Assembly: GCA_965248925.1 (NCBI GenBank)
Contig: CBDFLE010000005.1
Coordinates: forward strand, 32,001-96,000
Source: Candidatus Multivoradales bacterium
Lineage (GTDB): Bacteria > Acidobacteriota > Thermoanaerobaculia > Multivoradales > J023
Length of the DNA: 64,000 bases
Direction of reading: 5' to 3'
The position numbers and the translations under genes are program-made. Under the pieces are notes generated by a model. It was given only the letters and a program-made list of their open reading frames with translations, made no database searches and was not told the DNA's origin. Positions 4,214 to 30,424 of the stretch are shown one piece after another (the stretch's first letter is position 1; each line of letters begins with the position of its first letter).

Positions 4214-4644
4214 GTGAGCTTCAATTGGTACTCGCCACATTTTCTTATTCTGAAGATGAGCAAGAGGCTTTTCCTTACCTAAAGAGGTATATGACCAAAG
4301 TTATTCCGCTGCTTGGGGAAAGTCTTAGGGAGATTTCAACTAGGAATAACTTTATGCTTGCTGGGCTGTTCTTGACATATCGGGCGTGCAATCATCTGGG
4401 ATGCAATATTTCTACTGATATGGGCGAAATTTCGCTTCTGGACATTCACATGAAAAGACTTGAACTCTTCCGTAGGGTTTCAGGGGTCCACATTGAGAGC
4501 ACACGTCATTATCTGGAGTTGATTGACTTCAAGAAACATAAGTCACTATTTCGAGGCCCTGGCTCGATGTTGTTGAGGTTTGTGGCTAGTTCCGTCCGCC
4601 GAGATCGCATGTCCCGTCCGCCGCGTCCGCGATCAAAATCGTAG
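4210..4644 (+). CDS. Putative immunity protein for RHS tip 1; last 11 codons come from the element end
   Basis: Low-GC ORF overlapping the toxin stop; C-terminus SRPPRPRSKS* is encoded by the repeat starting at 4610. Confidence 0.7.
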   Translation: MSELQLVLATFSYSEDEQEAFPYLKRYMTKVIPLLGESLREISTRNNFMLAGLFLTYRACNHLGCNISTDMGEISLLDIHMKRLELFRRVSGVHIESTRHYLELIDFKKHKSLFRGPGSMLLRFVASSVRRDRMSRPPRPRSKS

Positions 4645-5105
4645 CCAAACGGCCACTTTATTGGTCGCCTGCCTTCGTTGATGGACCCGCTCCTTGTCGC
4701 TCCTCTTCAGCTCACGCCGAGAATTTCCCAGACCGACGGCGATCTTCGCTAGTTGCCGAGAATCCGAGGCGCCTGAGCGAGCCTCACCGTGGACAGCGCG
4801 TCGCAGCAGCCCATCAACTCGCCAGCCTGAGCCGCTCTACTTGGGCGCATAGAAGCCAGAGAGCACTCCTTGCCAGGCGGTCATGAATCGTAGGTGCCCC
4901 CGTGAGGGCTTGCGGCCGGTCCAGATCTCGGCTGGCGTGTAGCCATCGAGGCTTTGGTGCGGGCGCAGTTCGTTGTACCAAAACCGGAAGACATCCAGCT
5001 GCCGCTGGGCCTTGCGGCCCGCTGGCAGCGGCTCGCGCCGCCGCCGCAGGCGCTCTTTGAAGGTACCGAAGAACCGTTCGACGCGGCCGTTCTGCCAGGG
5101 CGAGG
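4610..5105 (-). pseudogene. 496-bp remnant of the integrase element (terminus plus 3' part of the integrase gene)
   Basis: Near-identical direct copy of 5106-5601, cut off by a second TGTCCCGTCC end at 5106. Confidence 0.9.
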
Positions 5106-5332
5106 TGTCCCGTCCGCCGCGTCCGCGATCAAAATCGTAGCCAAACGGCCACTTTATTGGTCGCCTGCCTTCGTTGATGGACCCGCTCCTTGTCGCTCCT
5201 CTTCAGCTCACGCCGAGAATTTCCCAGACCGACGGCGATCTTCGCTAGCTGCCGAGAATCCGAGGCGCCTGAGCGAGCCTCACCGTGGACAGCGCGTCGC
5301 AGCAGCCCATCAACTCGCCAGCCTGAGCCGCT

Positions 5333-6247
5333 CTACTTGGGCGCATAGAAGCCAGAGAGCACTCCTTGCCAGGCGGTCATGAATCGTAGGTGCCCCCGTG
5401 AGGGCTTGCGGCCGGTCCAGATCTCGGCTGGCGTGTAGCCATCGAGGCTTTGGTGCGGGCGCAGTTCGTTGTACCAAAACCGGAAGACATCCAGCTGCCG
5501 CTGGGCCTTGCGGCCCGCTGGCAGCGGCTCGCGCCGCCGCCGCAGGCGCTCTTTGAAGGTACCGAAGAACCGTTCGACGCGGCCGTTCTGCCAGGGCGAG
5601 GCCAGCTGGGTGCGCTGGTGGCGAATACCCAGTATGGCCAGCGAAAGCCGGAAGATCCAAGATGTAAAGACTGGCTCGTTGTCAGTGCGCAAGCACTTTG
5701 GCTTGCCGCATAGCTCGATCGTGTTGAGCAGCTGGCGAACCAGCTCAATGGAGGCTTTGGTCTTCACCGTCTGAAGGCTCAAGCAGAGCCGAGTGCCGTG
5801 GTCGAGCAGGCCGAAGATGGTTTCTTCCTTGCCGGAGGTGTTGTCGGCGTAGGTGAGATCGGCGGCCCAGATCAGCCGCTTGCCGCCGATCCCAGGTTTT
5901 CTCCTGCGGATCTTCCGGCGCCAAGCGAGAATCTCCAGCTGGTGCTCGTTGAAGATCTTTGCAACGTAGCTCTTGCCCACCGTCATTCGGCGATGGCGGT
6001 AGTTGCGATTGAAGGCTGCCGCGATCGCCCTACAGCCATCGTCGGGCTGCAACGCCTTGAGCCGGATCACCGCTTGGCGCACCCACTTGGGCTTGCGCCG
6101 GCAGAAGCCGCGATAAGTCGTTGGGTCGGGTGGACACTTGGCTCGGCGGCGGTGCTTCGCCCTGGGTTGCAGGGCGAGCGAAGTGAGCGCAAGAATCAGA
6201 AGCAACACGAACGCCCAGAGCAGGGCGCCGGCAAGATCAGAAGTCAT
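5333..6247 (-). CDS. rve/DDE integrase-transposase (IS481/IS3-like core) with N-terminal hydrophobic segment and HTH-like region
   Basis: WAADLT (D), RTDN (D), PWQNGRVERFFGTFK (E), WYNELRPHQSLDGYTP. Confidence 0.9.
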   Translation of the reverse strand: MTSDLAGALLWAFVLLLILALTSLALQPRAKHRRRAKCPPDPTTYRGFCRRKPKWVRQAVIRLKALQPDDGCRAIAAAFNRNYRHRRMTVGKSYVAKIFNEHQLEILAWRRKIRRRKPGIGGKRLIWAADLTYADNTSGKEETIFGLLDHGTRLCLSLQTVKTKASIELVRQLLNTIELCGKPKCLRTDNEPVFTSWIFRLSLAILGIRHQRTQLASPWQNGRVERFFGTFKERLRRRREPLPAGRKAQRQLDVFRFWYNELRPHQSLDGYTPAEIWTGRKPSRGHLRFMTAWQGVLSGFYAPK

Positions 6248-6297
6248 TCCTTGAGAATACCGATCTCACGCAGCCTAGCCCGAGGTGCCGCGCTGCC

Positions 6298-6765
6298 TCA
6301 CGTATCACCTCCCGAATGCCAGAAGCCCGGCTTGTGCAACTCCAGCACGAAGTCCACCTCGGCGGCCCTCGTCTCGTAGTCACGCCGCTCCTTCGCCGCC
6401 GCGATCCTGGCGGCGATCTCGCTGGCCAGGTGCTCTCCCTTGCCGGGTCGCGTCGGCAAAGCTTCTCTGGCCACATCGCGGAGGACTTGCTCCACCAGCG
6501 CCCGGTCCTTCTTCTTCGGGTCGCTAGCGTGGTTGAGAAACCACAGGATCAGCGCCGCGGGCTCGAGGAAGCGGTGGTTGACCGCGGCCAGGAAGGCCGC
6601 GGTCAGCTCTTCGATCGGTACGCTGGCAGAAAGCTTAATCTCAGCCAGGCTGTCGATGCTGGAATGATTGAGTCGCTGGTTGGCGCCGGTGACCTGAGCG
6701 GCGATCTGGCGTACTGTCTGGTGGATCTGTTCGGTGGTCATAGGCTTTCTGGACAGAGTGGCCAT
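6298..6765 (-). CDS. Hypothetical 155-aa helical protein of the element
   Basis: AGGAGG RBS; conserved in copy 2; co-oriented upstream of the integrase. Confidence 0.7.
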   Translation of the reverse strand: MATLSRKPMTTEQIHQTVRQIAAQVTGANQRLNHSSIDSLAEIKLSASVPIEELTAAFLAAVNHRFLEPAALILWFLNHASDPKKKDRALVEQVLRDVAREALPTRPGKGEHLASEIAARIAAAKERRDYETRAAEVDFVLELHKPGFWHSGGDT

Positions 6766-6790
6766 TCTGGTGTTCCTCCTAGGTGATCTA

Positions 6791-7096
6791 TTATTGGCGG
6801 ATATTGACGCCGAAGCCGATGGCCATGGTTTCGATGGCTTGGGCCAGGGCGATGTGTTGCTCGGTGAGTTCGGCCTCCGGCGTGGCGGGCAGCTTGAGGG
6901 TCAGCAAAGTGCCTCGTAGATGAACTTCGATCGTTGCCCTCTGACACACCACGAAAGCCAGGAGCTGGCGCAGGAATCGGTAGGCGGCGGGGAAGTCGAC
7001 GAACTCTAGCCGCTGGGCAATAACCTGTGGATTGTCTTCGCTCTGGCGCCAATGTACAAGGCGCCCTAGCCCGAGCTGAATTCGTTCGGGTTTCAT
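6791..7096 (-). CDS. Pterin-4a-carbinolamine dehydratase (PCD/DCoH)-like protein lacking the HHP motif
   Basis: Pattern 'IQLGLGRLVHWRQ...LEFVDFPAAYRFL...LTEQHIALAQAIE' resembles the PCD fold; AAGGAG RBS. Confidence 0.6.
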   Translation of the reverse strand: MKPERIQLGLGRLVHWRQSEDNPQVIAQRLEFVDFPAAYRFLRQLLAFVVCQRATIEVHLRGTLLTLKLPATPEAELTEQHIALAQAIETMAIGFGVNIRQ

Positions 7097-7114
7097 TCAC
7101 AATACTCCTTGAGG

Positions 7115-7480
7115 TCACGGTTCAAGAAAAAGCACCCTCCGGGCAGCAGGGGCTGATTCTGCCCGGAGGGGTGGAGTCGCCGTGGTTGGGGAGGGACCAC
7201 CACGGCCATCACAGGGACTCAGGGAGCGAGCGAGGTCGAAATCTTCCGGCCGCAGACGGGCCGGTGCCACCGGCCCGATCCGTACCGAGACCCAGCGGCC
7301 GACCATCGCGGCTCTGGGTTCTAGGTTGGTGAGTTCACCGCGATAAAACACCCACTCGACGAAGATCAGGGAATCGCGCCAAGAGTCAAAGAGGTATTTG
7401 CGGGTGATCTTTTGTTGCCCTTTGATTTGTCGCCAATCGGGTAGGGTGTTTAGGGCCTGTTGGATCTCTTCATCGGTCAT
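7115..7480 (-). CDS. Second PCD/DCoH-like protein lacking the HHP motif
   Basis: 'MTDEEIQQALNTLPDWRQ...ITRKYLFDSWRDSLIFVEWV...EDFDLARSL'; AAGGAG RBS before the ATG at 7480. Confidence 0.6.
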   Translation of the reverse strand: MTDEEIQQALNTLPDWRQIKGQQKITRKYLFDSWRDSLIFVEWVFYRGELTNLEPRAAMVGRWVSVRIGPVAPARLRPEDFDLARSLSPCDGRGGPSPTTATPPLRAESAPAARRVLFLEP

Positions 7481-7754
7481 CACTCTCTCCTTGGGTCTAG
7501 GAGGATGGTAAAGCCAACAGATTTGATCTGTGCAAATGATCTGGGCTGCGCTATATCCTGGAGCTGTGCATCTTGGACCTCCGCCTCCGAGGTCCATTCA
7601 GGAGTCAAAGAACCCGATATTGGACTCTGAGTGCACACTGGTTTGACATGGCTGCGCACTCTCGTGCAGCTTTGATGTTTTTCGCTCCAAGATTTCGGGG
7701 CGAGTCCAACGATGCGCTATACTTTGCCCCTGATCCAACTATCTGGAGGAGAGC

Positions 7755-9086
7755 ATGTCAGAAGTTCTATATCTATCCGACCATCAGCGGCTCCTAACTA
7801 CACTGAGAACGCATGTGCGGCGGCATCCGAGGTCACTTCAGGCTATCGAGAGGCGCCTCGGGTGGTCGCGTTCCTATCTGTCTCGCAAGCTTGGCGGTGC
7901 AATTTCCCTTTCTACGGAGCAGCTGCTGGAGATTCTTAAGATCGTTGATTTGAATCTGAGCGAGCTAGAAGCGAAGGCATCCTGGGTTGATGTCGAGGGC
8001 CTCCTTGAGGGTCTGCTGCCTGAAGGAAGTCGAAATCCAGCTCCGATTGTGGAGTTGCGACGAGTAGCTCGGGAGCTGGCGGAACGGGACGGGGTCATAG
8101 GCGAGAACATCGAAGTTGTTGAACCTCACTTGTCGACTCTGCTAGCTGTCGATCGGTTACGATTCTCTCATCCGTGGCCTGCTGCGAGACAAGCCTTCGC
8201 CGTGGCGGCTCATGTGGCTCCTGCGATCAATGGAGACGAAGCAAAGGAAATATTCTCTCGGGCCGCAGGCGTGTACGCTTCCTGTTGTCGAATGGGCGGT
8301 TCGCCAGAAGACGGAGTCCGCGCCATCCTTGTTGCCTTGTCCGCAGCGGGTTCGTCAAACCCGCAACTTCGAGCCTCGCTCATGGAGCGCGCTGCCTATC
8401 TGCTGATTTCTTTCGCTCAGAACCTCAAGGCGATTGCGGTATTTGATTTGGCGGATTCGATCAATATTGGAACTGGTGATCGATCTTGCCGAGGCCGGCT
8501 TGCCGTGGGGCGAGGTGTAGCTTGGCATCTGGAGAACGAGTTTCAGTTGTCAGCTACAGAGTTTCTATCGGCTTTGCAGCTTCTCAGTAATTGTGAGCAG
8601 GTATTTGCCGGATCGGCTCATCAATGTCTTGGGCAAGTTAGAATGGATGAAGGGGATCTCATCGGGGCTGCACGAGAAATCGAATTTGCCAGAACGTTGC
8701 TAGCCGATGGTGACGTGTATAGCCTAGGTATTGTAGAATGGACGGCTGCTCGTCTGGCTAGCAAGTGTGGTCAGTCGGAGCAGGCTGAATTGTTGTTTCG
8801 AGGAGCTGTCGACAACTTGATGAAGATCAATCCGTTCGACACCACTTTGGTCTGTCTAGATTGGGTTAAGTTGCTTCTTGAAAAAGGTGAAGCCGCCGAT
8901 GCCGTCTTGACAGCCAGGAGAACGGCTAGGTTAATTGAGCAATTCGAATCGAATCCGATTGCGGGTAGAACTATCCTGGAATTGAAGAAGGCATCTCTGA
9001 GGGGGCAGCTGACGTTCAGACTTGTAGGAGCGGCCCGGATGAGTATCGAGAGTGGGCGCTGCCTAGGCATACGCCCACTCTTTTGA
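7755..9086 (+). CDS. XRE-like HTH plus TPR-like helical-repeat protein (putative regulator)
   Basis: N-terminal 'SLQAIERRLGWSRSYLSRKLGG'; Ala/Leu-rich helical repeats; GGAGGAG RBS; divergent from the integrase operon. Confidence 0.7.
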   Translation: MSEVLYLSDHQRLLTTLRTHVRRHPRSLQAIERRLGWSRSYLSRKLGGAISLSTEQLLEILKIVDLNLSELEAKASWVDVEGLLEGLLPEGSRNPAPIVELRRVARELAERDGVIGENIEVVEPHLSTLLAVDRLRFSHPWPAARQAFAVAAHVAPAINGDEAKEIFSRAAGVYASCCRMGGSPEDGVRAILVALSAAGSSNPQLRASLMERAAYLLISFAQNLKAIAVFDLADSINIGTGDRSCRGRLAVGRGVAWHLENEFQLSATEFLSALQLLSNCEQVFAGSAHQCLGQVRMDEGDLIGAAREIEFARTLLADGDVYSLGIVEWTAARLASKCGQSEQAELLFRGAVDNLMKINPFDTTLVCLDWVKLLLEKGEAADAVLTARRTARLIEQFESNPIAGRTILELKKASLRGQLTFRLVGAARMSIESGRCLGIRPLF

Positions 9087-9189
9087 TCTAACCTCCCGGC
9101 ATTATTGCAGGCCCGTACAGCGTGGCACTGACTTTGCGCAGATAGCTCACCTGTGATCTCCTATTCCACGACATCGCCAGAGGGTCGGA

Positions 9190-12100
9190 TTGATCCTCCG
9201 GGTTCGTGATTTAGGCAACCCTACCCTGGAGATCTTCAACCGCGACCAGAGCACGACTTGGACGCTGGGGGAAGCGGTGCCGCCGGGCCTCACCCTGGCC
9301 CCGCCCAGCCCACCGAGCGGCACGGCGGCCGTCTCGCTCACCGTCAGTGGCATGGCGACGGCGGATCTTCCGGTGACCCTGCGCAACCTCACCACCGGGG
9401 AGCGCGATAGCGCTCGCGTCGGCAGTGCTGGTGGCGGCGGTGCTGGCAGTTTCTCCCTGAGTCTCAGCGTGCAGCGCGGCGACCGCCTGGAGCTGCTGCG
9501 CAACGAGCTGTCCTTGGCCTACGTGGCGGGTTACGACGCCGGGGTGGTGACGGTGGATCTGAACGCCGTCGAAGCGGTCGATGAGGAAGTCGACGATCCC
9601 TGGGATGCCTTCGATCTGCTGCGCTACAACACCCATTATTTTGTACCGACCGAGGTGCTGTGCTCGACGTTTGAGAACGATCAGCGCTTCGACGTGATCG
9701 AGGCGCGGGTGCTGCCGGCGGCGTCGGAGGGCGAGCCTTGGAGCGTGCTGGCCCTGGTCGAGAATTATGGCTTGCTGTCGCTGGGTGCCTCGGTCGCTGC
9801 GCCGCTCGACAAGCTGGCCTACCGCGACGCTCTGTGCGGCGAGGTCGACGGCAACCGCAAGCTGGGCGGTCTCGATGTGCTGCCCGGCTACCGCTTCGAC
9901 CGTAACGGCGACGGTGTGCTGGACGACGAGGAGCCCGAGCGTGACTACGCGCTGCTCACCAACACCGTCGGTGGCGGCGGTCTTGGCTGGCTGCTGATCG
10001 TCGATGTCACCAAGCGCGATGAGCTGCTTCTTGTGGGCCGCATCGAGCTGCCCGGCCCAGCGACGCGGGTGACTGCTGATCCGGTCGGCCGCCGCGCCCT
10101 GGTCTCAGGCCTCGGTGGCGGGGTCTACATCGTCGACCTCGATCGCTGGCCCGAGCTGGGTGGCGGCGGCGGAACCCCTCAGATCTGGTCGAGCGATCGG
10201 GTGGTCGAGCGCCTGAGCTTTGGCGAGGACGTGCGCGCCCCCACCCTGGTAGCTCCAGAACTGGGCCTGGCCTTCGCCGGTGGCGTTGCCCGCGGCGTGA
10301 CCCCCCTCAGCACCGGCCTGCCACGCCTGTCGCTGGTGACTAGCGGCAAAAAGGGACTGCGCCGGGTCGCCCGGTTGGCGCCATTTGGCGCGCCTACCGC
10401 GCCGGAGAGCGCCGAGGAGGAAGCCGAAGAACTACCCGGCCTGATCCGCGTGCAGGCGCAGCTTCCTGGTGGCCTGGCCGATACCGAGGGCAAGATCCGT
10501 GTTGACCTCGCGGGCATCGGCCCCGCCGGGCTGCCGCTGCGCGGCCTTGGTGAGGGGCTGATGGACGAGCCCGTGGCCGAGCTGAAAGACGATAAGGCGC
10601 TGGTGCTGCAGCGGCAGTCGGACAACCCCCTTTCAGAGGGCTACAACGTCTTCCTCTCCGACCCGGTGGTGCTGCTGGCAGATGTACGCGCCTCGGCGCA
10701 CTTCGAGCGCTCGGAGGCCGAGAAGAAGGTCTGCCGCCGCTGCGACCTGGTGGACGAGGGGGTCTACTCCGCGGCCGATCTACCTCCCAACGAGCTGCAT
10801 GTCGAGCTGCTGTCGGGCCATCAAGTGCGGGCTAGCTACAGCGCAGCCTTCGCCACCAGCCTTGCCGGCCTCTACGATGCCGACCTGCTAGCGGGCTACG
10901 CCGTCGTCGCCGACAGCGTGCCCTGGGATCTCAGCCCCTCGCCGCACCAGGAGCCGGTGCTCAATGCCGCCACTAGAGCGATAGCGGCGCCGGGCACCCT
11001 CTTGCACTCCGGCGAGATGAGCCGCCAGGCGATCGACCTCAGCCTCCAAGGCCGGGGTTTAGATGTGGCCTTGGTGCGCACCTACCGCAGCCAAACGATC
11101 AGCAACGGCCCCCTCGGCCCGGGCTGGGATCATGGCTACCGCCTGCGCCTGCGGCTCTTGCCCAATGGCGATATCGACTTCTTCGACGGCACTGGCCGCC
11201 GCGAGACCTTCACCTTGGAAGACGACCGCGAGCTGAAGCCGCCCGTCGGCCGCTTCGTCCAGCTCAAGAAGTACGCCGAGGGCTACACCCTGATCGGCAG
11301 CGGCTACCAGCGCTGGCGTTTCGACCGCTGGGGTCGTTTAGTGTCGATGATCGACTCGGTGCGCACCAGCGAAGGGACCGGCAACGAGATCACCTTCCAC
11401 TACGACTCCCACTCGCGCCTGGCGCGAATCCACGACGACCTCGACCGCAACACCTTCCTGCACTACGACGACGAAGGCCGCTTAGAAAAAGTCGTAGACT
11501 TCAGCGACCGCGACTTCCTCTACCACTACGACGCCCAGGGCCGGCTGAGCAGTTTCGAGACCCCAGAAGTCGACCTCGGCACCGGCAGCAGCCAGCGCCT
11601 ATCGACCACCTACGCCTACCACGCCGCCGGCACCGGCCTGGCTGGCCAGCTCAGCCAACGCGATGATCTGAAAAGCGAGACTGACGCCAAGAGCCAGACC
11701 TGGCTCACCCTGCGGTATCAGGACTCCGACGGCAACGGCCGCCCCGATGCGCTCAAAGAACAAGATTGGGGAGCGGGGACAGTGCATTTGGCCTTCGATT
11801 TCGACGGCCAGCAGACCACCCTCACCGATCGCCGAGGCAAAGTCTGGACCTACCATCACAACGCTGCTGGGCAGGCCACCAGCCTGGTCGATCCGAAGTC
11901 AGCCAACGGGTCGTGGCAATACGACGGCGAAGGTCTACTGACCCGCGCCACCCGCCCCCTGGGTGGGGCTACCGAGATCGAGTATCCGGCGGACACCTCC
12001 GGCGACCGCCGCGGCAGAGGCGATGCTCTGCGGATGGTTAAGATCGCCGACAGCCGCGGCCCCAACGGCTCGCCCAGCGAGCTGGTGACCACCTGGGAAT

Positions 12101-18573: not shown

Positions 18574-18623
18574 GCCCTGAGAATACCGATCTCACGCAGC
18601 CTAGCCCGAGGTGCCGCGCTGCC

Positions 18624-19091: not shown

Positions 19092-19116
19092 TCTGGTGTT
19101 CCTCCTAGGTGATCTA

Positions 19117-19422: not shown

Positions 19423-19440
19423 TCACAATACTCCTTGAGG

Positions 19441-19806: not shown

Positions 19807-20080
19807 CACTCTCTCCTTGGGTCTAGGAGGATGGTAAAGCCAACAGATTTGATCTGTGCAAATGATCTGGGCTGCGCCATATCCTGGAGCTGTGCATCTT
19901 GGACCTCCGCCTCCGAGGTCCATTCAGGAGTCAAAGAACCCGATATTGGACTCTGAGTGCACACTGGTTTGACATGGCTGCGCACTCTCGTGCAGCTTTG
20001 ATGTTTTTCGCTCCAAGATTTCGGGGCGAGTCCAACGATGCGCTATACTTTGCCCCTGATCCAACTATCTGGAGGAGAGC

Positions 20081-21412: not shown

Positions 21413-21515
21413 TCTAACCTCCCGGCATTATTGCAGGCCCGTACAGCGTGGCACTGACTTTGCGCAGATAGCTCACCTGTGATCTCCTATTCCACGACAT
21501 CGCCAGAGGGTCGGA

Positions 21516-24500: not shown

Positions 24501-27500
24501 CCCAAGGTGCGTCATGACGCCTATGGCACGCCGCTCAACGCCACCTCGTCGATGACGTACGACTTTTTCGGTCGGATCACCGAGCAGACCGCCCCCAACC
24601 AGAGCAAAACCACCTTTACCTATTCCCTTGAGGACGGTTACTTGACTCAGGTGGTCGCCGATGCCCAGAACCTGGCTCTGAGCACCGACTTTCTGGAGCG
24701 CGACGCCCGTGGCAATCCGCTGCGCTGGCGCGACCCGCGCGGGGTGATCCACGAAGCTGAGTACAACGCCCTCGGCTGGCTGCTGCGCCAGCGGCAGGCG
24801 ATCTCAGGCGGGGCTGCCCCGATCGGCCTGGTGAGTGAATTCGACTACGACGCCAACGGCCAGGTCACGGCGACCCGGCGCTCCCACAGTGGCGGCGGGA
24901 TGACCGCCGTTCGCTTCACCTACGGGGTTCTCGGCGAGCTACTGCGCAGCGAGCGCGAGGTCGAGCCCGGCGGGGCGGCGATCCTCGAGACCGTAGCGTA
25001 TGACCCTCACCTCAACCCGACTCGCATCGTCGATGGTGTCGGTGGGGTCACCCTGCTGGAGTACGACGCCCGCAACCTACCGCTGCGCAAGACTAGCGGG
25101 GCGGGTACGGCGGCGGAGATTGCAGAGGAGTACTCCTATGACGCCGATGGCCGGCTGGTGGTCTACACCGATGCTCGCCAACAAGTTTGGCGTACTGAGT
25201 ACGACGGCTTGGGACGCCCCGCGGCACAGATCAATCCGCTGGGAGAGCGCACCGAGACCGAGTACACCCCAGGTGACCTGCCAATCCACCAGCGCCGCTT
25301 GAGTGCCTCGGGCGTCGTGAAGAGCGAGCAGCAATGGCAGTGGGACGTGCGGGCTCGGCAGACCCGCGGCATTGCTCATCTGTGGGCCTATGGCGAGGGT
25401 GGCGGCGATGGCGAAGCTCTTCAGCAGTTGACGACCGAGTTTACTTACGATGCCATCTCGAATCTGCTCACCGTCGAGGGTCCTGGCATCTCGTTGGAGC
25501 ATCGCTACGACTCGGCGGGGCGGCGGACCTTGTCGCAGGACCAGGCCGGCAACATCGTCGAGCTGGACCTTGACCCGCTAGGTCTGGTCACCAGCCAACG
25601 CCACCTTGAGCAACTCGCCGAGGGGGGCACCGCGACCGTCGAGAACACCTTCACCCACGACGCTTTGGGCCGTCCGCTGAGTGAGAGTCTGCCCCAGGGT
25701 GGCAGCCGCAGCTGGCAATATGACGTCCGTGGCAACCTGACCCGTTTTGCCGACGCCGACGGCCGCGTCTGGAGCTGGCAATACGACGGCCTCGACCGCC
25801 GGGTCGCCGAGCAGGCTCCGGGAGGTGTTGACCTCAGCCACACCTATGACCAGGCTTCGCGGCCGCTGACCTACACCGACGCTCTCGGTAACCAGACCCG
25901 CTGGGTCTACGACATTCTGGGTCGGCGCACCGACTGGCTGCTCAACGGCGTCGGAGTAGAGATCTACGGCCACGACGAGAGCGGCAACCCAACCTCCATC
26001 CTGCGCGCCGACGGCAGCCGCATCGATCAGAGTTTCGATGCCGCCGGCCGGCTGATCAGCCGCCAGATCAACCTCCCTGACGGCACCCTGGGCGAGGCCG
26101 AGAGCTACTCCCATGACGCCCTGGGGCGGATCACTCAGCAAACCGCGGGCGGCATCTCCACCCAGCACAGCTTCGACTCGTTGTCGCGGCTGACCGCCGA
26201 GACCACCGCTGATCTCACCGTCGGTTACCAGCACGATGCCGCCGGCAACCTGATTCAGATCAGCTACCCCTCGGGTCGCCGGGTCGACATCGTGCCCGAC
26301 GGGCTCAATCGCCCCTCCACGGTCGCCTGGGCGGCGCCCGGCCCACCCGAAGTCAAGGTGCGCTACGGCTATCGCGGCGGCAATCTGATGTCCTCCCGCA
26401 GCCTGGCCCAGCTCACCGGGGTGAAGACTTTTGATGCCGGCCGGCGCACCGCCGGCTGGCAAGTCCAGGATGCTGGCAACCAGTTGCTGCTCGGCGAAAG
26501 CCTGACCTGGACCCCCGGCTCGCGGCTGGCCACCGCCACCCGCACCGATTTGGGTGGCCTCACCCGTCGTTACGGCTACCAGGACGGTCGCTTGATCTCG
26601 GCCATCCAGACTGGCGGCCCGGCCTCCAGCACCCCGGCCGCCACCGGCTGGGCCGACGTGCCCGCGAGCTTCACCTACAGCTACGACCGAGCCCAGAATC
26701 TGCTGGGGATGGACTTCGCACAAAGCTGCGCAGCCACCCAGGTCGCCCTGCCGCTGGATGGCAGCGGCTGGAACCGCCCGGCTTCAGTAGCCGGCGAAGC
26801 GCTCCAGTGGACCCCACGCCAGGAGCTGGCGAGCAAAGGAAACCTCAACTTCACTTACAGCTGGGACCACCGTCCCATCGAACTTCGGCGCAATGGGGTG
26901 ACGATCGCCAGCTACAAATACGACTCCCAAGGTCGCCGAGTCGAGCGCCAAGTCGGCGCCGACACCTACACCACCGTCTGGTCCGGCTGGCAGCCGATCG
27001 AAGAATACAAAAACGGTCTATTGCACAGCCGCCGCACCTACGGCGTTGGCCTCGACGAACTCATTCGCCTCGAAAGCGACCTCGACGGCGACGGTGTTCT
27101 AGAGCAGGAATACCTGCCCTTCTACGACACGATCGGCAACCTAGTCCTACTCACCAACGAAGCCGGCAAACCCATCGAACGCTACGCCTACGGCCCTTAC
27201 GGCCGGCAGTGGATCGTCGCCGATTTGACAGCGCCCGCAGTCGAGCAGATCCGCATGAAAGGTGATGAGCTGTGGATCGAACTCTCAGAAGAAGTGCGGC
27301 TCGACCGCCTGCAAGCCGCCTCTAGCGCCGGCACGCTGACGCTGGTCAACGCCCTCGGCGATGAAATCAGCTTGCAGATCGAGCAGCCCATCGACAGCGG
27401 CCGCGCCGCCCGGCGGCGCGTGGTGCTCAGCGAGCTGCCGAGCCAGAATCCCCCACGCTGGCCGGTGGCGGGGGAGATTGCCACCCTGACCATCCCAGCC

Positions 27501-28994
27501 GGAGCCCTGGTCGACCTCTTCGAAAACAAAGGCGCGGCCGTGGCCGAGTCCATGACCTGGCCGGCCATCGCGGACGAGATTTACAGCGACACAGCCCCTC
27601 CCCAGCTGCTTCAGGCTTGCGTCACAGCGCAAAGAAAAGTCGAGCTGGAATTCAGCGAGCCCCTCGACGAAGCGACCCTCGACACCATCCAGCTCAACAG
27701 CGTGGCAACCACCTGGACCGTCTCCGCCGATGGCTACCGCCTGACCAGCGGCGCCCTCGCGGTCGGCTCCAACACCCTGCTGGTAGACGGCGAACTGAAA
27801 GACCTCGCCGGCACCTCGCTGGCAGGCACCGTGAGCGAGAGCTTCATCGTCAATCTAGATCAAGGCACGATCATCCACAGCGCTCCCTACGCCGGGCAGA
27901 TCGCCATCTCGGCTACCGGTAACCCGTTTGGCTTCAAAGGCTTGCCGAGAGACCCGGAGAGTGGGCTGATCTATGTCAGGCACCGCTACTACGATCCAGA
28001 AATAGGCCGGTGGATCACCTCCGATCCACTGGGACTCGTCGATGGGTCGAACCGCTACCAGTTTGCCCTGAATGATCCGACTAACAACAGCGATCCCACC
28101 GGGGAGTTTGTGGTTGTTGGTTCGATCCTGATCGCAGCGGCGATCTATGGGGCTACTCACGAGATCGAACGAGCCACGGACGTAGACCCGCATGCTAGCG
28201 TTGGCGGAGCGGCGGCCCTGGGAGCGACGCGAGGTTTGGTAGTTGGCGGTCTCGCCATTGCATCGGGAGGGTTTGGTGGAGGACTTGCTGCTGGGCTTGG
28301 AGGAGGTACGATTGTCCAGGGCGCTACGGTGGGTGTCTTTGCGGGTGTTGGGGGCGTCTTTGCTGAGGATGTGATCGATGTCGGGGTGCTTCATCATCGG
28401 GAGAGCTTCAGCTCTATCGGGCAGTATGCTGGGGCAGCGGCGATTGGTGGTGCGTTGGGAGGTGTTGGTGGCGCAGTTCTGGCACGAATGCAGCCAGGAG
28501 GTGCTGGTAGGGTGGCACGAGGTGTTAGATCTATTCCAAGACGAAGTGTGAAGTACAAGACTTCAGGTATGGTTGCCGACATGGCTAGGTTCGACACTAG
28601 AAGGGGTGTTCAGTATCTCAATGAGGTTTCTAGGAGACGATATAGGATCTCAATCAAGAATGGGAAGCTATACGACGCTTCAGGTCAGCTGTTCGAAACA
28701 GTCTCGGCTTCAACAGCATTTAGTAAAGGTAAGGCAATTTTTGTGATGAATGAAGTTGGAGAAATATTTGCTTCGACATCTCATAGAGTTGGCAGATTTC
28801 ATCATTCTTCTTTCTTGGCTGGTGGGAAAGTTGCTGCTTCAGGAGAGATCGAAGTTATGAGAGGTATAGTTGTCGGAATGACGAGAAATAGTGGCCACTA
28901 CAGGCAGGGTCCGCAGTACCTTCAGCAGATGACGAAAGAGCTTCGTAGGCATGGTGTGCGTATTTCTCCAAGTCAAATAAAGGGAGGGTTCTAG
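21516..28994 (+). CDS. RHS toxin (core type B) with glycine-rich hydrophobic linker and HHSSF/SGHY C-terminal domain; start uncertain
   Basis: N-terminal ~895 aa shared with the 9190 ORF; core shared with the base-2 ORF; DPTG; tip 'RFHHSSFLAGGKVAASGEIEV...NSGHYRQ'. Confidence 0.9.
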   Translation: MILRVRDLGNPTLEIFNRDQSTTWTLGEAVPPGLTLAPPSPPSGTAAVSLTVSGMATAERPVTLRNLTTGERDSARVGSPGGGGAGSFSLSLSVRRGDRLELLRNELSLAYVAGYDAGVVTVDLNAVEAVDEEVDDPWDAFDLLRYNTHYFVPTEVLCSTFENDQRFDVIDARVLPAASEGEPWSVLALVENYGLLSLGASVAAPLDKLAYRDALCGEVDDNRKMGGLDVLPGYRFDRNGDGVLDDEDPERDFALLTNTVGGGGLGWLLIVDVTERDELLLVGRIELPGPATRVTADPVGRRALVSGHGGGVYIVDLDRWPELGGGGGTPQIWSSDRVVERLSFGEDVRAPTLVAPELGLAFAGGVARGVTPLSTGLPRLSLVTSGKKGLRRVARLAPFGAPSAPESAEEGAEEIPGVIRVQAQLPGGLADAEGKIRVDLAGIGPAGLPVRGLGEGLMDEPMAELKDDKALVLQRQSDNPLSEGYNVFLSDPVVLLADVRASAHFERSEAEKKVCRRCDLVDEGVYTAADLPPNELHVELLSGHQVRASYSAAVASSLTGLYDADLLAGYAVVADSVPWDLSPSPHQEPALNAATSAMAAPGTLLHSGEMTRQAIDLSLQGRGLDVALVRTYRSQTISNGPLGPGWDHGYRLRLRLLPNGDIDFFDGTGRRETFTLEDDRELKPPVGRFVQLKKYAEGYTLIGSGYQRWRFDRWGRLVSMIDSVRTSEETGNEITFHYDSHSRLARIHDDLGRNTLLHYDDEGRLEKIEDFSDRDFLYHYDAQGRLTSFETPDVDLGSGSSQRLSTTYAYHPLGTGLAGQLTQRDDLKSETDAKSQTWLTLRYQDSDGNGRPDALKEQDWGAGTVHLAFDFDGQQTTLTDRRGKVWTYHLNAAGQMLSERDPASHQSNWSYEPSGALAQATEAGGITTDLTYGSDSPRQRGNVSSVTTTPSPGYPNPVAPVVVQVLERVKKTNRVASWNDKHGAQHLIITYPNELPKVRHDAYGTPLNATSSMTYDFFGRITEQTAPNQSKTTFTYSLEDGYLTQVVADAQNLALSTDFLERDARGNPLRWRDPRGVIHEAEYNALGWLLRQRQAISGGAAPIGLVSEFDYDANGQVTATRRSHSGGGMTAVRFTYGVLGELLRSEREVEPGGAAILETVAYDPHLNPTRIVDGVGGVTLLEYDARNLPLRKTSGAGTAAEIAEEYSYDADGRLVVYTDARQQVWRTEYDGLGRPAAQINPLGERTETEYTPGDLPIHQRRLSASGVVKSEQQWQWDVRARQTRGIAHLWAYGEGGGDGEALQQLTTEFTYDAISNLLTVEGPGISLEHRYDSAGRRTLSQDQAGNIVELDLDPLGLVTSQRHLEQLAEGGTATVENTFTHDALGRPLSESLPQGGSRSWQYDVRGNLTRFADADGRVWSWQYDGLDRRVAEQAPGGVDLSHTYDQASRPLTYTDALGNQTRWVYDILGRRTDWLLNGVGVEIYGHDESGNPTSILRADGSRIDQSFDAAGRLISRQINLPDGTLGEAESYSHDALGRITQQTAGGISTQHSFDSLSRLTAETTADLTVGYQHDAAGNLIQISYPSGRRVDIVPDGLNRPSTVAWAAPGPPEVKVRYGYRGGNLMSSRSLAQLTGVKTFDAGRRTAGWQVQDAGNQLLLGESLTWTPGSRLATATRTDLGGLTRRYGYQDGRLISAIQTGGPASSTPAATGWADVPASFTYSYDRAQNLLGMDFAQSCAATQVALPLDGSGWNRPASVAGEALQWTPRQELASKGNLNFTYSWDHRPIELRRNGVTIASYKYDSQGRRVERQVGADTYTTVWSGWQPIEEYKNGLLHSRRTYGVGLDELIRLESDLDGDGVLEQEYLPFYDTIGNLVLLTNEAGKPIERYAYGPYGRQWIVADLTAPAVEQIRMKGDELWIELSEEVRLDRLQAASSAGTLTLVNALGDEISLQIEQPIDSGRAARRRVVLSELPSQNPPRWPVAGEIATLTIPAGALVDLFENKGAAVAESMTWPAIADEIYSDTAPPQLLQACVTAQRKVELEFSEPLDEATLDTIQLNSVATTWTVSADGYRLTSGALAVGSNTLLVDGELKDLAGTSLAGTVSESFIVNLDQGTIIHSAPYAGQIAISATGNPFGFKGLPRDPESGLIYVRHRYYDPEIGRWITSDPLGLVDGSNRYQFALNDPTNNSDPTGEFVVVGSILIAAAIYGATHEIERATDVDPHASVGGAAALGATRGLVVGGLAIASGGFGGGLAAGLGGGTIVQGATVGVFAGVGGVFAEDVIDVGVLHHRESFSSIGQYAGAAAIGGALGGVGGAVLARMQPGGAGRVARGVRSIPRRSVKYKTSGMVADMARFDTRRGVQYLNEVSRRRYRISIKNGKLYDASGQLFETVSASTAFSKGKAIFVMNEVGEIFASTSHRVGRFHHSSFLAGGKVAASGEIEVMRGIVVGMTRNSGHYRQGPQYLQQMTKELRRHGVRISPSQIKGGF

Positions 28995-29155
28995 TGGTAG
29001 ATTTAGCGGATGAATTGAGGACTGTGCTGTATACGATTTTCTATGTTGAAGACTTGTCAGCATTTCAGGGTTTGACCTCCTCTCAGAAGGAAGCATTTCT
29101 TCGTGACCATACCCTTGAAGTGTCCCGTCCGCGGCGTCCACGATCAAAATCGTAG
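28994..29155 (+). CDS. Putative immunity gene for tip 3 (53 aa, probably truncated by the element end); not in the ORF track
   Basis: GTG overlaps the toxin TAG; reads MVDLADELRTVLYTIFYVEDLSAFQGLTSSQKEAFLRDHTLEV-SRPRRPRSKS*. Confidence 0.55.
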   Translation: MVDLADELRTVLYTIFYVEDLSAFQGLTSSQKEAFLRDHTLEVSRPRRPRSKS

Positions 29156-30424
29156 CCAAACGGCCACTTTATTGGTCGCCTGCCTTCGTTGATGGACCCG
29201 CTCCTTGTCTCCTCTTCAGCTCACGCCGAGAATTTCCCAGACCGACGGCGATCTTCGCTAGTTGCCGAGAATCCGAGGCGCCTGAGCGAGCCTTACCGTG
29301 GACAGCGCGTCGCAGCAGCCCATCAACTCGCCAGCCTGAGCCGCTCTACTTGGGCGCATAGAAGCCAGAGAGCACTCCTTGCCAGGCGGTCATGAATCGT
29401 AGGTGCCCCCGTGAGGGCTTGCGGCCGGTCCAGATCTCGGCTGGCGTGTAGCCATCGAGGCTTTGGTGCGGGCGCAGTTCGTTGTACCAAAACCGGAAGA
29501 CATCCAGCTGCCGCTGGGCCTTGCGGCCCGCTGGCAGCGGCTCGCGCCGCCGCCGCAGGCGCTCTTTGAAGGTACCGAAGAACCGTTCGACGCGGCCGTT
29601 CTGCCAGGGCGAGGCCACCTGAGTTCGCTGGTGGCGAATACCCAGTATGGCCAGCGAAAGCCGGAAGATCCAAGATGTAAAGACTGGCTCGTTGTCAGTG
29701 CGCAAGCACTTTGGCTTGCCGCATAGCTCGATCGCGTTGAGCAGCTGGCGAACCAGCTCAATGGAGGCTTTGGTCTTCACCGTCTGAAGGCTCAAGCAGA
29801 GCCGAGTGCCGTGGTCGAGCAGGCCGAAGATGGTTTCTTTCTGGCCGGCGGTGTTATCAGCGTAGGTGAGATCGGCGGCCCAGATCAGCCGCTTGCCGCC
29901 GATCCCAGGTTTTCTCCTGCGGATCTTCCGGCGCCAAGCGAGAATCTCCAGCTGGTGCTCGTTGAAGATCTTTGCAACGTAGCTCTTGCCCACCGTCATT
30001 CGGCGATGGCGGTAGTTGCGATTGAAGGCTGCCGCGATCGCCCTACAGCCATCGTCGGGCTGCAACGCCTTGAGCCGGATCACCGCTTGGCGCACCCACT
30101 TGGGCTTGCGCCGGCAGAAGCCGCGATAAGTCGTTGGGTCGGGTGGACACTTGGCTCGGCGGCGGTGCTTCGCCCTGGGTTGCAGGGCGAGCGAAGTGAG
30201 CGCAAGAATCAGAAGTAACATGAAGGCACAGAGTAGGGCGCCGCCAAGATCGGGAGTCATGCCCTGAGAATACCGATCTCACGCAGCCTAGCCCGAGGTG
30301 CCGCGCTGCCTCACGTATCACCTCCCGAATGCCAGAAGCCCGGCTTGTGCAACTCCAGCACGAAGTCCACCTCGGCGGCCCTCGTCTCGTAGTCACGCCG
30401 CTCCTTCGCCGCCGCGATCCTGGC
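29121..30424. mobile_element. DDE-integrase element, copy 3, truncated inside the 155-aa gene
   Basis: TGTCCCGTCC end; identity with copy 2 stops at GATCCTGGC (30424). Confidence 0.8.
29346..30260 (-). CDS. rve/DDE integrase-transposase, copy 3
   Basis: One residue different from copy 2. Confidence 0.9.
   Translation of the reverse strand: MTPDLGGALLCAFMLLLILALTSLALQPRAKHRRRAKCPPDPTTYRGFCRRKPKWVRQAVIRLKALQPDDGCRAIAAAFNRNYRHRRMTVGKSYVAKIFNEHQLEILAWRRKIRRRKPGIGGKRLIWAADLTYADNTAGQKETIFGLLDHGTRLCLSLQTVKTKASIELVRQLLNAIELCGKPKCLRTDNEPVFTSWIFRLSLAILGIRHQRTQVASPWQNGRVERFFGTFKERLRRRREPLPAGRKAQRQLDVFRFWYNELRPHQSLDGYTPAEIWTGRKPSRGHLRFMTAWQGVLSGFYAPK

Follow-up and report, generated by a model that had tools for sequence, protein, structure and literature searches.

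A candidate asymmetric DDE-integrase element with one recognisable end at the 3′ borders of RHS and CdiA-type toxin cassettes

The gain of new toxin tips and the pile-up of orphan modules in Rhs and CdiA systems are usually credited to homologous recombination and to unspecified 'transposases and integrases'. The stretch of Candidatus Multivoradales DNA analysed here (64,000 nucleotides; hereafter the window) raises the question of what one such integrase is doing there: an rve-type gene with a single recognisable end recurs between successive RHS toxin genes, always in the same orientation, and may be either a tolerated passenger of the array or a participant in the exchange of its cassettes.

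The window is the tail of an RHS array of ~200 kb that runs over two overlapping contigs of the source genome (C4 and C5 of G000). The initial annotation described a repeat unit present twice in full and a third time truncated, and self-BLAST recovers exactly this: 5105–11874 matches 17431–24200 with 97.98% identity across 6772 bp, 17431–18737 matches 29120–30424 (the truncated third copy) with 99.5% identity, and 4610–5105, a 496-bp end fragment, reproduces the initial 496 bp of the element with 99.8% identity. The window does open with the tail of another unit, as had been supposed, and this tail belongs to a 5057-aa RHS gene. Duplicated segments start exactly at the terminus of the element and extend rightwards into RHS by variable distances. 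The features are as follows.

2–4213, plus: 3′ part of an RHS gene with its own C-terminal tip (5057-aa gene, G000:C5:21040-36213; RHS_repeat, 3.4e-51)
4210–4644, plus: 144-aa ORF in the immunity position (putative role, from position only)
4610–5105, minus: 496-bp end-proximal fragment of an older element (terminus and final 89 codons of its integrase), truncated where the terminus of copy 1 begins
5106–6297, minus: core element copy 1 (terminus TGTCCCGTCC at 5106, 227-bp untranslated stretch, integrase at 5333–6247; inner boundary approximate)
6298–6765, minus: orf155, a gene without assigned function that adjoins the integrase in the source genome only
6929–7105, no strand: 177-bp stretch inside a doubtful 126-aa ORF; shared by the window copies with one further copy
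7115–7597, minus: 160-aa pterin-4a-carbinolamine-dehydratase (PCD)-like gene (Pterin_4a, 2.9e-10)
7755–9086, plus: 443-aa HTH and TPR regulator-like gene, upstream of RHS1 and divergent from the PCD-like gene
9190–16614, plus: RHS1, 2474 aa (DUF6531, RHS repeats, Amidase_2 tip)
16562–17332, plus: 256-aa immunity-position ORF that takes its stop codon from the first end fragment
17301–17431, minus: four stacked, truncated end fragments (45, 41, 31, and 14 bp)
17432–18623, minus: core element copy 2 (integrase at 17659–18573)
18624–19091, minus: second orf155 (ORF map)
19441–19923, minus: second copy of the PCD-like gene (ORF map)
20081–21412, plus: second HTH-TPR gene (ORF map)
21516–28994, plus: RHS2, 2492 aa (DUF6531, RHS repeats; tip without a Pfam match)
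28994–29120, plus: start (~42 codons) of an immunity-position 104-aa ORF, interrupted by the terminus of copy 3
29121–30424, minus: element copy 3 and the last 37 orf155 codons (integrase at 29346–30260; ends at unit position 1306)
30691–32082, plus: 463-aa orphan RHS core fragment at the right end of the array (RHS_repeat and Big_5 matches)

The RHS genes of the window carry RHS_repeat matches (E 1e-51 to 1e-71) together with DUF6531 and follow the plan of RHS polymorphic toxins, in which a core of RHS/YD repeats leads into a variable C-terminal tip and a small gene lies downstream. The tips of RHS1 and RHS2 differ, and the gene at the window start combines a core 95% identical to 24789–28046 with a different tip (self-BLAST). 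The orphan fragment at 30691–32082 is 94% identical to 14328–15732, and its junction is common to C4:265412-268346. Close relatives of the window units lie on C4: RHS2 is 99.65% identical to C4:187380-197068, copy 3 (29121–30424) is 100% identical to C4:269596-270899, and 28994–29120 is 100% identical to C4:196942-197068, where the ORF continues to 197256. Within the unit of copy 2, the core element is 96.6% identical to the copy at C4:185559, whereas the RHS part and its counterpart in that C4 unit agree at 99.65%.

The core element, ~1.2 kb in length, consists of one 304-aa rve integrase and a conserved terminus, TGTCCCGTCC, located ~230 bp past the integrase stop (5′-TGTCCCGTCC..., or ...GGACnnnnGGACGGGACA-3′ in the direction of the integrase). 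The integrase at 5333–6247 (minus strand) matches rve_3 and rve and displays the catalytic plan of DDE (rve) enzymes—D, D, and E, with ~35 residues between the second D and E; across 22 sequences, D130 and D189 never vary, and E225 shows at least 90% conservation. The family profile also aligns to retroviral integrase cores (best E 4.6e-12). Nine diverged, intact copies in the source genome are under purifying selection (dN/dS 0.14–0.31, with dS up to 0.28).

Within the window, TGTCCCGTCC occurs at 4610, 5106, 17301, 17346, 17387, 17418, 17432, and 29121, and its reverse complement occurs nowhere. Genome-wide, 28 of the 29 plus-strand occurrences of the 10-mer fall in RHS loci, all in one orientation, and the reverse complement has two occurrences, both of them unrelated 10-mers. 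A search of both strands, which the initial annotation had recommended, disclosed no inverted repeat of the terminus near any element of the source genome; its view of a single recognisable end without an inverted partner thus holds there and in the 55–56 relatives tested. An IS3-like element in the same genome, used as a control, has clear inverted repeats and 25 full copies dispersed over four contigs. The integrase loci number 14, nine of them intact, and every one lies within an RHS locus, unlike the scattered copies of an ordinary insertion sequence (IS). A single copy (on C6) lacks its terminus, with ~73 bp missing. In every copy examined, the cassette that borders the inner boundary differs from the one that borders the end, and no target-site duplication could be defined.

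The genes next to the integrase are another matter. orf155, the PCD-like gene, and the HTH-TPR gene had been counted as components of the element, and integrase homologues elsewhere were expected to adjoin the latter two; neither claim survives. None of the three turned up in 88 related loci, and paralogous trios without an integrase exist in the source genome; these genes are therefore local regulatory neighbours of full-length RHS genes and not parts of the element. orf155 is a real minus-strand gene, to judge by its translation, which detects paralogues at E 1e-25, compared with 4e-7 when the overlapping plus-strand ORF is used; its stop lies 50 bp before the integrase ATG, without overlap. 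One of the two proposed PCD-like genes stands (7115–7597, Pterin_4a; paralogues without an integrase elsewhere in the genome). The other, an Arg/Pro-rich 126-aa ORF at 6738–7118, has no family match and a 177-bp part (6929–7105) missing from most other copies, and is unsupported. The HTH-TPR gene (7755–9086) has weak HTH_31 and TPR_MalT matches under the Pfam cut-offs and ~20 paralogues in the genome. The unit otherwise contains the ORFs described, except that unit 2 has no intact immunity gene.

The left junction had been said to vary and always to fall in an immunity-position gene or an older element end, and each terminus of the window conforms. The 144-aa and 256-aa ORFs end 31–35 nt downstream of termini 4610 and 17301; the last 35 nt and stop codon of the former (4210–4644; no match in Pfam or NCBIfam) derive from the element end. 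Termini 5106, 17346, 17387, 17418, and 17432 lie inside older end fragments, and terminus 29121 severs the 104-aa ORF after ~42 codons (relative to the 100% identical copy at G000:C4:195448-197068). The terminal nucleotide is joined precisely to unrelated targets—the 3′ ends of immunity-position genes, an ordinary IS, or the end of another copy—and the element end supplies the stop codon at five of ten junctions. No consensus emerges from the flanks left of the ends, and no recombination site was seen on the cassette side.

Joints within the end of another copy, the commonest target type, fall 13–496 bp inside it and leave stacks. In the stack at 17301–17431, each fragment begins at the terminal T and is ended by the next terminus, and the outer two come from another variant of the element. 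The source genome has at least 15 end fragments, arranged in seven stacks, and lengths of 31 and 45 bp recur among them. Stacks also occur in other genera (L043, L044, L052, L054, with 8-nt fragments included, and L130), and at 9 of 60 loci a further end 10-mer lies 52–354 bp beyond the first. At one joint at least, 29121, each flank matches another copy with 100% identity, which points to a recent event; this joint nonetheless lies 154 bp from that of the sister copy.

Beyond the source genome, the terminus 10-mer (at most one mismatch allowed) follows an integrase homologue at 60 of 80 loci from several phyla, mostly 220–250 bp past the stop; eight of the remaining 20 had less than 500 bp of sequence available. 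The 10-nt terminus is conserved across Acidobacteriota, Proteobacteria, Nitrospirota, and Campylobacterota, and GGAC occurs 155 times within the last 25 nt of the 60 ends. Upstream of the integrase, relatives show no enrichment of GTCC/GGAC, TGTCNNGTCC is found at none of 55 loci, and an inverted copy of the terminal 20 nt within 600 bp rises above shuffles at only 1 of 56. The related loci are partly kin and not independent, hence these counts exceed the number of independent events.

RHS fragments adjoin the integrase at seven of eight loci from relatives of the same family or order, and RHS matches, present at 17 of the 80 loci, run antiparallel to the integrase at every one of them. At 47 loci scanned up to 6 kb past the end, the largest ORF carries RHS_repeat (10), Fil_haemagg_2 (5), HCBP/RTX (2), DUF637 (2), or PT-VENN (2) and is convergent with the integrase in 38 cases; on the opposite side, RHS_repeat appears at 3 of 43. 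At least 27 of the 47 end-side flanks have no recognised toxin family in their largest ORF, some of these being housekeeping genes. The expectation that homologues consistently lie beside RHS genes is thus upheld in part: RHS/CdiA-type toxins are much commoner on the end side, but the link is to polymorphic toxins generally. The family is present in several phyla at the 3′ borders of RHS/CdiA cassettes, with the integrase antiparallel to the toxin gene and the element end facing the 3′ end of that gene; this toxin association is strong but not exclusive. As in the source genome, directly oriented element copies alternate with RHS units in L043, L052, L054, and L130.

On balance, we favour by a little the reading of an asymmetric DDE element that makes precise joints between its end and a target, its other joint arising, as we infer, through the homology of toxin repeats. 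Since relatives adjoin toxin genes in many phyla, the element may help bacteria to swap toxin and immunity cassettes. In the mechanism that we propose, the integrase would nick the CA-3′ terminus, and the 3′-OH would then attack the same strand near a second synapse-bound end, in the way that IS3/IS30-type copy-out begins; the partner would be a neighbouring element copy in direct orientation. Attack on a downstream copy would delete one unit and leave a stack; attack on an upstream copy would yield a circle that combines the integrase with the neighbouring toxin-immunity cassette and carries an end-to-fragment joint. Such a circle could re-enter via one homologous crossover in conserved toxin repeats, whereby the resident gene would acquire a new tip and the old tip, now a 5′-truncated orphan, would be pushed behind the element. 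The contigs from four runs of one sample contained no circle, excision product, or empty site, and the growth of a tandem array needs nothing beyond unequal RHS recombination, which counts against this reading. The circle model predicts no particular loss of element sequence, and an insertion model predicts terminus-less copies, of which the C6 copy is the one seen. Strand transfer, resolution by RHS homology, and the 'dedicated device' role put forward in the initial annotation are thus things that we infer rather than observe. A bolder version is tentative and on the whole doubtful: an rve family, spread over several phyla, that gave up its second end to become a dedicated carrier of toxin tips through circles and crossover, each round adding a truncated end so that the stack would tally cassette moves—a DDE counterpart of the integron for interbacterial weaponry.

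An alternative is an ordinary, uncatalogued IS with two functional, dissimilar ends, inserted and tolerated in dispensable, repeat-rich toxin arrays and giving the toxin loci nothing; arrays would then stem from unequal RHS recombination, and stacks from nested insertions trimmed by homologous deletion between copies. We regard this as unlikely. In other genera the element starts 60–130 bp upstream of the integrase ATG, and this second, inner boundary is reproducible in Nitrincola, Thermoanaerobaculia, Ahniella, and G009, with two or three different flanks in each. It fits an element that can also move as a discrete 1.2-kb unit, and an end-only mechanism leaves it unexplained; the boundary nevertheless bears neither an inverted repeat nor an end-like motif. 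Many database homologues sit on contigs of 1.2–1.7 kb, like collapsed IS copies, and some loci have housekeeping neighbours; Ruhe et al. (2016; PMC4927057) already mention that transposase and integrase genes lie among orphan modules. Against such an origin, the toxin genes are all antiparallel to the integrase, with enrichment confined to the end side, ends and fragments keep one orientation (28 of 28 in RHS loci of the genome, and none reversed in 80 loci), and no displaced remainder of an interrupted copy was seen among the array units and end stacks. The genome's copies are also old (dS up to 0.28) yet selected, unlike a recent IS burst, and only 1 of 72,556 plasmid records holds a family member, its end facing a 38.8-kb 'tandem-95 repeat protein' gene.

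The near absence from plasmids and the long-term purifying selection on the integrase would suit a host-recruited, integron-like platform, in which integrase and end form a fixed capture site for toxin-immunity cassettes and the fragments are scars of capture. Ends that abut or slightly trim immunity-position genes and lend them stop codons are in keeping with this idea, which is improbable all the same: each unit has its own diverged integrase rather than one serving many cassettes, no recombination site was seen on the cassettes and no consensus in the flanks left of the ends, and reciprocal site-specific exchange is, to our knowledge, not known for DDE enzymes. Moreover, whole elements have been replaced, given that the fragments trace back to more than one variant of the element. 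That the tandem structure and stacks are assembly artefacts of a repeat-rich region is scarcely credible, even with contig-level data from one sample and a contig break within the array (the C4 tail and the C5 head share a 5950-bp overlap, and C4:209046-212045 is a further match to the same 3 kb): the units differ by 2–14% and have unique tips, and hence are not collapsed or expanded copies; short-read contigs (four runs, one sample) span three junctions, namely the 256-aa ORF/end junction and two stack junctions, though not the tandem order; element depth is ~5–14 times that of unique flank, which fits ~14 copies; and independent assemblies from other phyla show the same architecture.

The asymmetric element thus offers a concrete candidate—one integrase family, a 10-nt terminus, a fixed orientation to the toxin gene, and a stacked-end scar of past events. 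If the proposed mechanism is true, a single end with a direct-repeat partner would be a new working mode for DDE enzymes, the terminus would serve as a sequence tag with which to locate toxin-immunity cassettes in genomic and metagenomic data, and cassette turnover would become testable at the bench. Were it merely an IS with a liking for toxin arrays, it would still be an undescribed IS group with unusual ends.

Among known systems, the IS3 and IS481 families are DDE/rve insertion sequences with TG...CA ends, and IS3 moves by copy-out-paste-in. They have in common with the element the rve core (D, D, 35-residue spacing, E), terminal TG...CA, and a length of ~1.2 kb. They are also the best NCBIfam matches of the integrase, at 109 bits for IS481 (cut-off 224 bits, NF033577) and 94.4 bits for IS3 (cut-off 160 bits, NF033516), and membership of either is rejected at these scores. 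A single 304-aa ORF replaces the overlapping orfA/orfB with −1 frameshift of IS3, and the inverted repeats at both ends that typify the two families are lacking here, whereas the IS3-like positive control in the same genome shows its own. IS3 and IS481 are dispersed, whereas copies of the element are confined to toxin loci. The right inverted repeat (IRR) of ISPa57, an IS3-family member, begins TGTCCCGTCC according to Table 1 of PMC7378034.

Direct copies on one strand that alternate with passenger segments recall the translocatable units of IS26 and, in Burkholderia thailandensis, the bcpAIOB-bearing IS2-like 'megacircle' (Ocasio and Cotter 2019; PMC6350997). In each case the mobile unit is, or is proposed to be, a circle of one element copy with adjacent DNA, and the megacircle likewise has a polymorphic toxin system as passenger. 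IS26 and the IS2-like element, however, have normal inverted repeats and precise joints, whereas the element here has one end and joints 4–496 bp inside a resident end; its passengers would be single toxin-tip cassettes rather than a 210-kb segment, and its circle is a proposal only. The IS6 family (IS26-type) is rejected on three counts: the enzyme is rve-type, DDE_Tnp_IS240 scores 24.6 bits against a cut-off of 27, and inverted repeats are absent.

One-ended or read-through capture is a property of ISEcp1, ISCR/IS91, IS911 derivatives, and the Tn3 family, which resemble the element in having one defined end, a variable or surrogate second boundary, and mobilised adjacent genes. With the exception of IS911, their transposases belong to different families, and all own a second natural end; we know of none that is tied to polymorphic toxin loci or leaves stacks of end fragments. 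Integrons and Bacteroidales rAID-1 arrays employ tyrosine recombinases, attI/attC-type sites, and one recombinase per array. They share with the RHS array tandem small cassettes beside a recombinase gene and a role in bacterial conflict, whereas each unit of the present array brings a DDE integrase of its own. Assignment as an integron is rejected, the sole recombinase being rve-type and not IntI, and no motif being shared left of the ends.

Orphan toxin-immunity arrays downstream of rhs and cdiA were reportedly described by Poole in 2011 and Koskiniemi in 2014. They are also the subject of Ruhe et al. (2016; PMC4927057), whose relevant passages leave undefined an intervening element with a single conserved end, fixed orientation, and stacked ends; a published description of such a one-ended toxin-array element was not found in the literature. 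In its targeting, the element is akin to IS30 (IR-targeting and tandem dimers; PMC9333248), inasmuch as the active end of a DDE element prefers the end region of another copy. IS30 joins inverted repeats and has defined left and right ends, whereas here direct copies of one end meet, and the outcome is a stack of truncated ends.

The element is about 1.2 kb long and consists of a 304-aa rve integrase and one conserved terminus (the end), whose terminal 10-mer is TGTCCCGTCC. In the window it lies within units composed of the end, integrase, orf155, a PCD-like gene, an HTH-TPR gene, an RHS gene with its tip, and a small ORF in the immunity position. Self-comparison, an ORF map and family searches bore out the repeats and ORFs of the initial annotation: 5105-11874 and 17431-24200 agree at 97.98% across 6772 bp, the identity between 17431-18737 and 29120-30424 is 99.5%, and 4610-5105 duplicates the first 496 bp of the element. 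The RHS cores form a mosaic (2-3259 against 24789-28046 at 95%; 14328-15732 against 30648-32052 at 94%). The genes concerned are as follows:

5333-6247, minus strand: integrase, 304 aa, matching rve_3 (2.7e-17) and rve
7115-7597, minus strand: PCD-like gene, matching Pterin_4a (2.9e-10)
7755-9086, plus strand: HTH-TPR gene, with weak matches to HTH_31 and TPR_MalT
RHS1 and RHS2 (RHS genes of units 1 and 2): DUF6531 and RHS repeats, with Amidase_2 at the end of RHS1

Two PCD-like genes had been proposed, and the Pterin_4a match at 7115-7597 upholds one of them. The candidate for the second, a 126-aa ORF (6738-7118), has no family match, is Arg/Pro-rich and contains a 177-bp stretch that most copies lack, which supports a single PCD-like gene. 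This stretch (59 codons; 6929-7105, between orf155 and the PCD-like gene) occurs in both full window copies and at C4:219501 (on contig C4), and is missing from most other copies of the unit. An immunity gene had also been expected in every full unit; unit 2, which starts at 17432, has no intact one, as a 104-aa ORF there is interrupted, approximately 42 codons in, by the terminus at 29121, judged against a 100% identical copy (G000:C4:195448-197068, G000 being this genome) in which the ORF runs on. An Rfam search of the whole window returned no match.

The element itself is smaller than first proposed. The orf155, PCD-like and HTH-TPR genes had been counted among its parts; they were found in none of 88 related loci, and paralogous trios without an integrase exist in the genome, so that these genes are local neighbours. 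Reading orf155 as an IS3-like orfA was likewise rejected, given that there is no overlap between it and the integrase, that paralogues of it accompany PCD-like genes where there is no integrase, and that the 88 related loci lack it. The integrase-free trios (about 30-47% identity) lie at G000:C6:4661696-4664304, C5:1076682-1077690, C6:4912126-4913130, C6:2414577-2416186 and C6:3277579-3280078. In a rough ORF listing not all of them stand beside RHS-sized genes, and the trio looks like a recurrent regulatory module.

That the element has only one end was borne out by a genome-wide search for the 10-mer on both strands, in which the reverse complement of the end lay near no element copy. There are 29 plus-strand occurrences of TGTCCCGTCC, 28 of them in RHS loci and in a single orientation; outside RHS loci, two reverse-complement occurrences and one plus-strand occurrence match over 10-11 nt only. 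No inverted right end emerged from an inverted-repeat search of 5000-9300, nor from relaxed patterns to the right of the integrase.

Homologues of the integrase are many, about 300 aa long and 45-54% identical; among those that carry a name, 'integrase core domain-containing protein' and 'transposase InsO family protein' are represented. Among genomes belonging to the same family and order, RHS fragments adjoin the integrase in seven of the eight loci examined. One of these related loci, L043, is an orphan array in which integrase copies alternate with RHS core fragments; its element is about 1150 bp long, with the same terminal TGTCCCGTCC and the same stacking of ends. A wider scan took in 80 loci from Thermoanaerobaculia, other Acidobacteriota, Gamma- and Betaproteobacteria, Nitrospirota, Fibrobacterota and Campylobacterota; Nitrincola sp. 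MINF-07-Sa-05 and Stenotrophomonas nitritireducens STE1 are among the carriers. Of the 80 loci, 60 have the 10-mer (≤1 mismatch) after the integrase, mostly 220-250 bp past the stop codon, one or two of these looking spurious (L073 abuts tRNA-like sequence; L069 has it at 668 bp), and eight of the other 20 had <500 bp of sequence available there. An inverted copy of the end is absent upstream of the integrase, where the best match exceeded its shuffles in one of 56 loci, and TGTCNNGTCC was found upstream in none of 55. The final 25 nt of the 60 ends contain the motif GGAC 155 times in all; upstream of the integrase it is not enriched. The one-ended anatomy is real and holds across phyla. Within the terminal 40-70 nt, immediately internal to the terminal GGAC repeats, many family members (e.g., L063, L070, L084, L089) carry a hairpin whose loop is A-rich and which precedes a run of T residues; it looks like a terminator for the integrase.

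Ends are frequently found in stacks, that is, rows of end fragments that begin at the terminal T, extend inwards and stop exactly at the terminal T of the next copy. Two stacks lie in the window:

4610-5105: stack of end fragments
17301-17431: stack of end fragments

Fragment lengths are 13, 14, 17, 22, 31 (three times), ~32, 41, 45 (twice), 57, ~76, 112 and 496 bp, and the 31-bp stacking hot spot of this genome coincides with a matching small hairpin, CGATcaaaATCG. Different element variants are represented within a single stack, which identifies the fragments as remnants of different copies and not products of slippage. In one case a full end abuts position 1326 of an IS3-like element copy that is in turn located 13 bp into an older end. 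Stacking also occurs in L044, L052, L054 (Nitrincola) and L130 (Ahniella). A further end 10-mer lies 52-354 bp past the first in 9 of the 60 loci, and directly abutting stacks at the first end, counting fragments of ≤60 nt only, were present in L054 alone. Directly beyond its full ends, L054 carries the 8-nt end fragment ACGGGACA up to four times (2520-2560, 6494-6510, 11380-11415), and GACA repeats occupy the same position in Ahniella (L130:11013-11035).

At five of ten junctions, a small upstream ORF extends 31-34 nt into the end, which supplies its stop codon, and at two of the ten the end begins 5-8 bp past an ORF stop; the 20 nt on the left side of the ends yielded no consensus. The five reading-in ORFs (window 4610-4644 and 17301-17332; G000:C4:162997, 197222 and 269476) share one frame relative to the end, with a TAG stop 30-35 nt inside, where random joints would be expected to give all three frames. 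Selection favouring a short tail on the immunity-position protein may account for this common frame.

Recognised toxin genes lie more often on the end side than upstream of the integrase. Beyond the end, the largest ORF within 6 kb (n = 47) matched RHS_repeat in ten cases, Fil_haemagg_2 in five, and HCBP/RTX, DUF637 and PT-VENN in two each, with 38 of 47 running antiparallel to (convergent with) the integrase; on the upstream side of the integrase, the largest ORF within 6 kb (n = 43) matched RHS_repeat in three cases and was antiparallel in 25. Seventeen of the 80 loci have RHS matches, every one of them antiparallel to the integrase. One CdiA-type protein on the end side terminates in Tox-REase-7, and the products of the remaining end-side ORFs are either unknown or housekeeping proteins. 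Of 72,556 plasmid records, a single one contains a member of the family (Undibacterium, L142; NZ_AP018442.1:127727-168629), whose end faces a 38.8-kb 'tandem-95 repeat protein' gene; the integrase there is tail to tail with a hypothetical gene and this gene. The toxin link is real and conserved across phyla, and is with polymorphic toxins in general: homologues had been expected consistently beside RHS-tip genes, and RHS or other toxin genes do lie on the end side in part of the loci, albeit not RHS alone.

Several copies are closely related. The RHS part of unit 2 (19432-29120) matches C4:187380-197068 at 99.65%, with mismatch-free stretches of 2.7 and 4 kb, whereas the integrase parts of the same two units match at 96.6% only. 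From 29121 to 30424 the element shows 100% identity to C4:269596-270899. On either side of the joint at 29121 there are thus 100%-identical relatives; the joint nevertheless lies 154 bp off that of its sister copy, which suggests a recent, precise and end-specific event, although the identity on the element side could also stem from gene conversion across the entire homologous tract. Among the nine intact integrase genes dS reaches 0.28, with dN/dS of 0.14-0.31, and the conserved residues D130, D189 and E225 align with retroviral integrase cores.

The sequences show a conserved CA-3′ terminus, exact joints between it and targets of various kinds, among which the first 13-57 bp of another end are preferred, and duplicated segments that begin exactly at the terminus and reach variable distances into RHS. 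As the most likely mechanism, we infer that the integrase would nick the terminus and that the freed 3′-OH would attack the same strand near a partner end, in a manner resembling the first step of IS3/IS30-type copy-out, with a direct copy as the partner here. Same-strand attack would explain why inverted copies or segments are not seen. Were the target a downstream copy, a unit would be deleted and a stack left behind; were it an upstream copy, a circle of integrase and cassette with an end-to-fragment joint would result. Such a circle could enter by one crossover in conserved toxin repeats, thereby giving the resident gene a new tip and leaving the old one as a 5′-truncated orphan behind the element. 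Orphans in this position are present in L043, L052 and L054 and at 30691-32082. The interpretation offered in the initial annotation is supported in part: it survives in its one-ended anatomy and toxin link, and not in the size of the element or its restriction to RHS.

The end-only mechanism leaves a reproducible second boundary unexplained. Among copies in Nitrincola (n = 4) and in a Thermoanaerobaculia MAG, Ahniella and genome G009 (n = 2 each), similarity starts at the same point, 60-130 bp ahead of the integrase ATG, with flanks that vary among copies and are frequently 5′-truncated toxin fragments. Compared across genera, this inner boundary shows no common motif and none like the end. 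Fixed but motif-free, it makes the element asymmetric, and not entirely open on that side. The alternative of an ordinary IS that has dissimilar ends and builds up in toxin arrays is unlikely, albeit of appreciable weight. The element is filed as a DDE/rve insertion element.

Within the genome, RHS loci hold all 14 integrase loci (nine intact), made up of the array copies and two degraded copies beside another RHS family near the C5 and C6 ends; occurrence at non-RHS sites, set beforehand as a possible refutation, was observed for none (n = 14). The array comprises about 14 RHS genes (2474 to 5114 aa) plus orphans, most of the RHS genes being preceded by the block of terminus, integrase, orf155, PCD-like gene and HTH-TPR gene. 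An integron-like fixed platform appears improbable. The degraded copies (80-86% DNA identity), of which that on C6 lacks about 73 bp of its terminus, adjoin a further RHS family, likewise in tandem, whose copies (3552-3564 aa; G000:C5:2312066-2357353 and the end of G000:C6) carry Transglut_core, DUF6531 and RHS repeats and are separated by Calx-beta/DUF11 giant proteins. By contrast, the IS3-like element of the same genome (1.64 kb) has clear inverted repeats and 25 full copies over four contigs. Those repeats read TGTG[C/T]CAATG[T/A]AAGTGAGACAC, and its two ORFs encode 154 and 407 aa; it lies at G000:C5:12768-14408 (= L140:12768-14408) and 24 other sites, with a partial copy at G000:C4:264099-265423, and one copy interrupts an array unit.

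The window corresponds to G000:C5:32001-96000. The C4 tail (G000:C4:278798-284747, 5950 bp) overlaps the C5 head (G000:C5:1-5947) at 99.93%, and the RHS genes probably form a single array that spans roughly 200 kb between about C4:140 kb and C5:64 kb. The C4-C5 join is likely, though not certainly, correct, since the same 3 kb also matches another array unit. A separate set of short-read contigs (four runs, one sample, one study) gave no joints indicative of circles or deletions; these contigs break in repeats, and thus have no bearing on circles, unit number or expression; that the whole is an assembly artefact is very hard to credit.

Literature searches, supplementary tables and ISfinder aside, yielded no account of this element family, its single end or its stacked ends. 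In the parts of the Zhang et al. 2012 survey (PMC3482391) consulted, the words 'integrase', 'mobile element' and 'transposon' are absent and 'transposase' occurs once, in an unrelated sense. The confirmed observation reaches far past the window. Ruhe et al. 2016 (PMC4927057) mention genes for transposases and integrases lying between orphan modules. In the portion of PMC7378034 consulted, the IRR of the IS3-family element ISPa57 starts with TGTCCCGTCC; ISPa57, however, has normal inverted repeats, as opposed to the single end described here. The available part of Ocasio and Cotter 2019 (PMC6350997) describes an IS2-like element that circularises with adjacent DNA carrying bcpAIOB, the circle inserting beside a resident copy like an IS26 unit.
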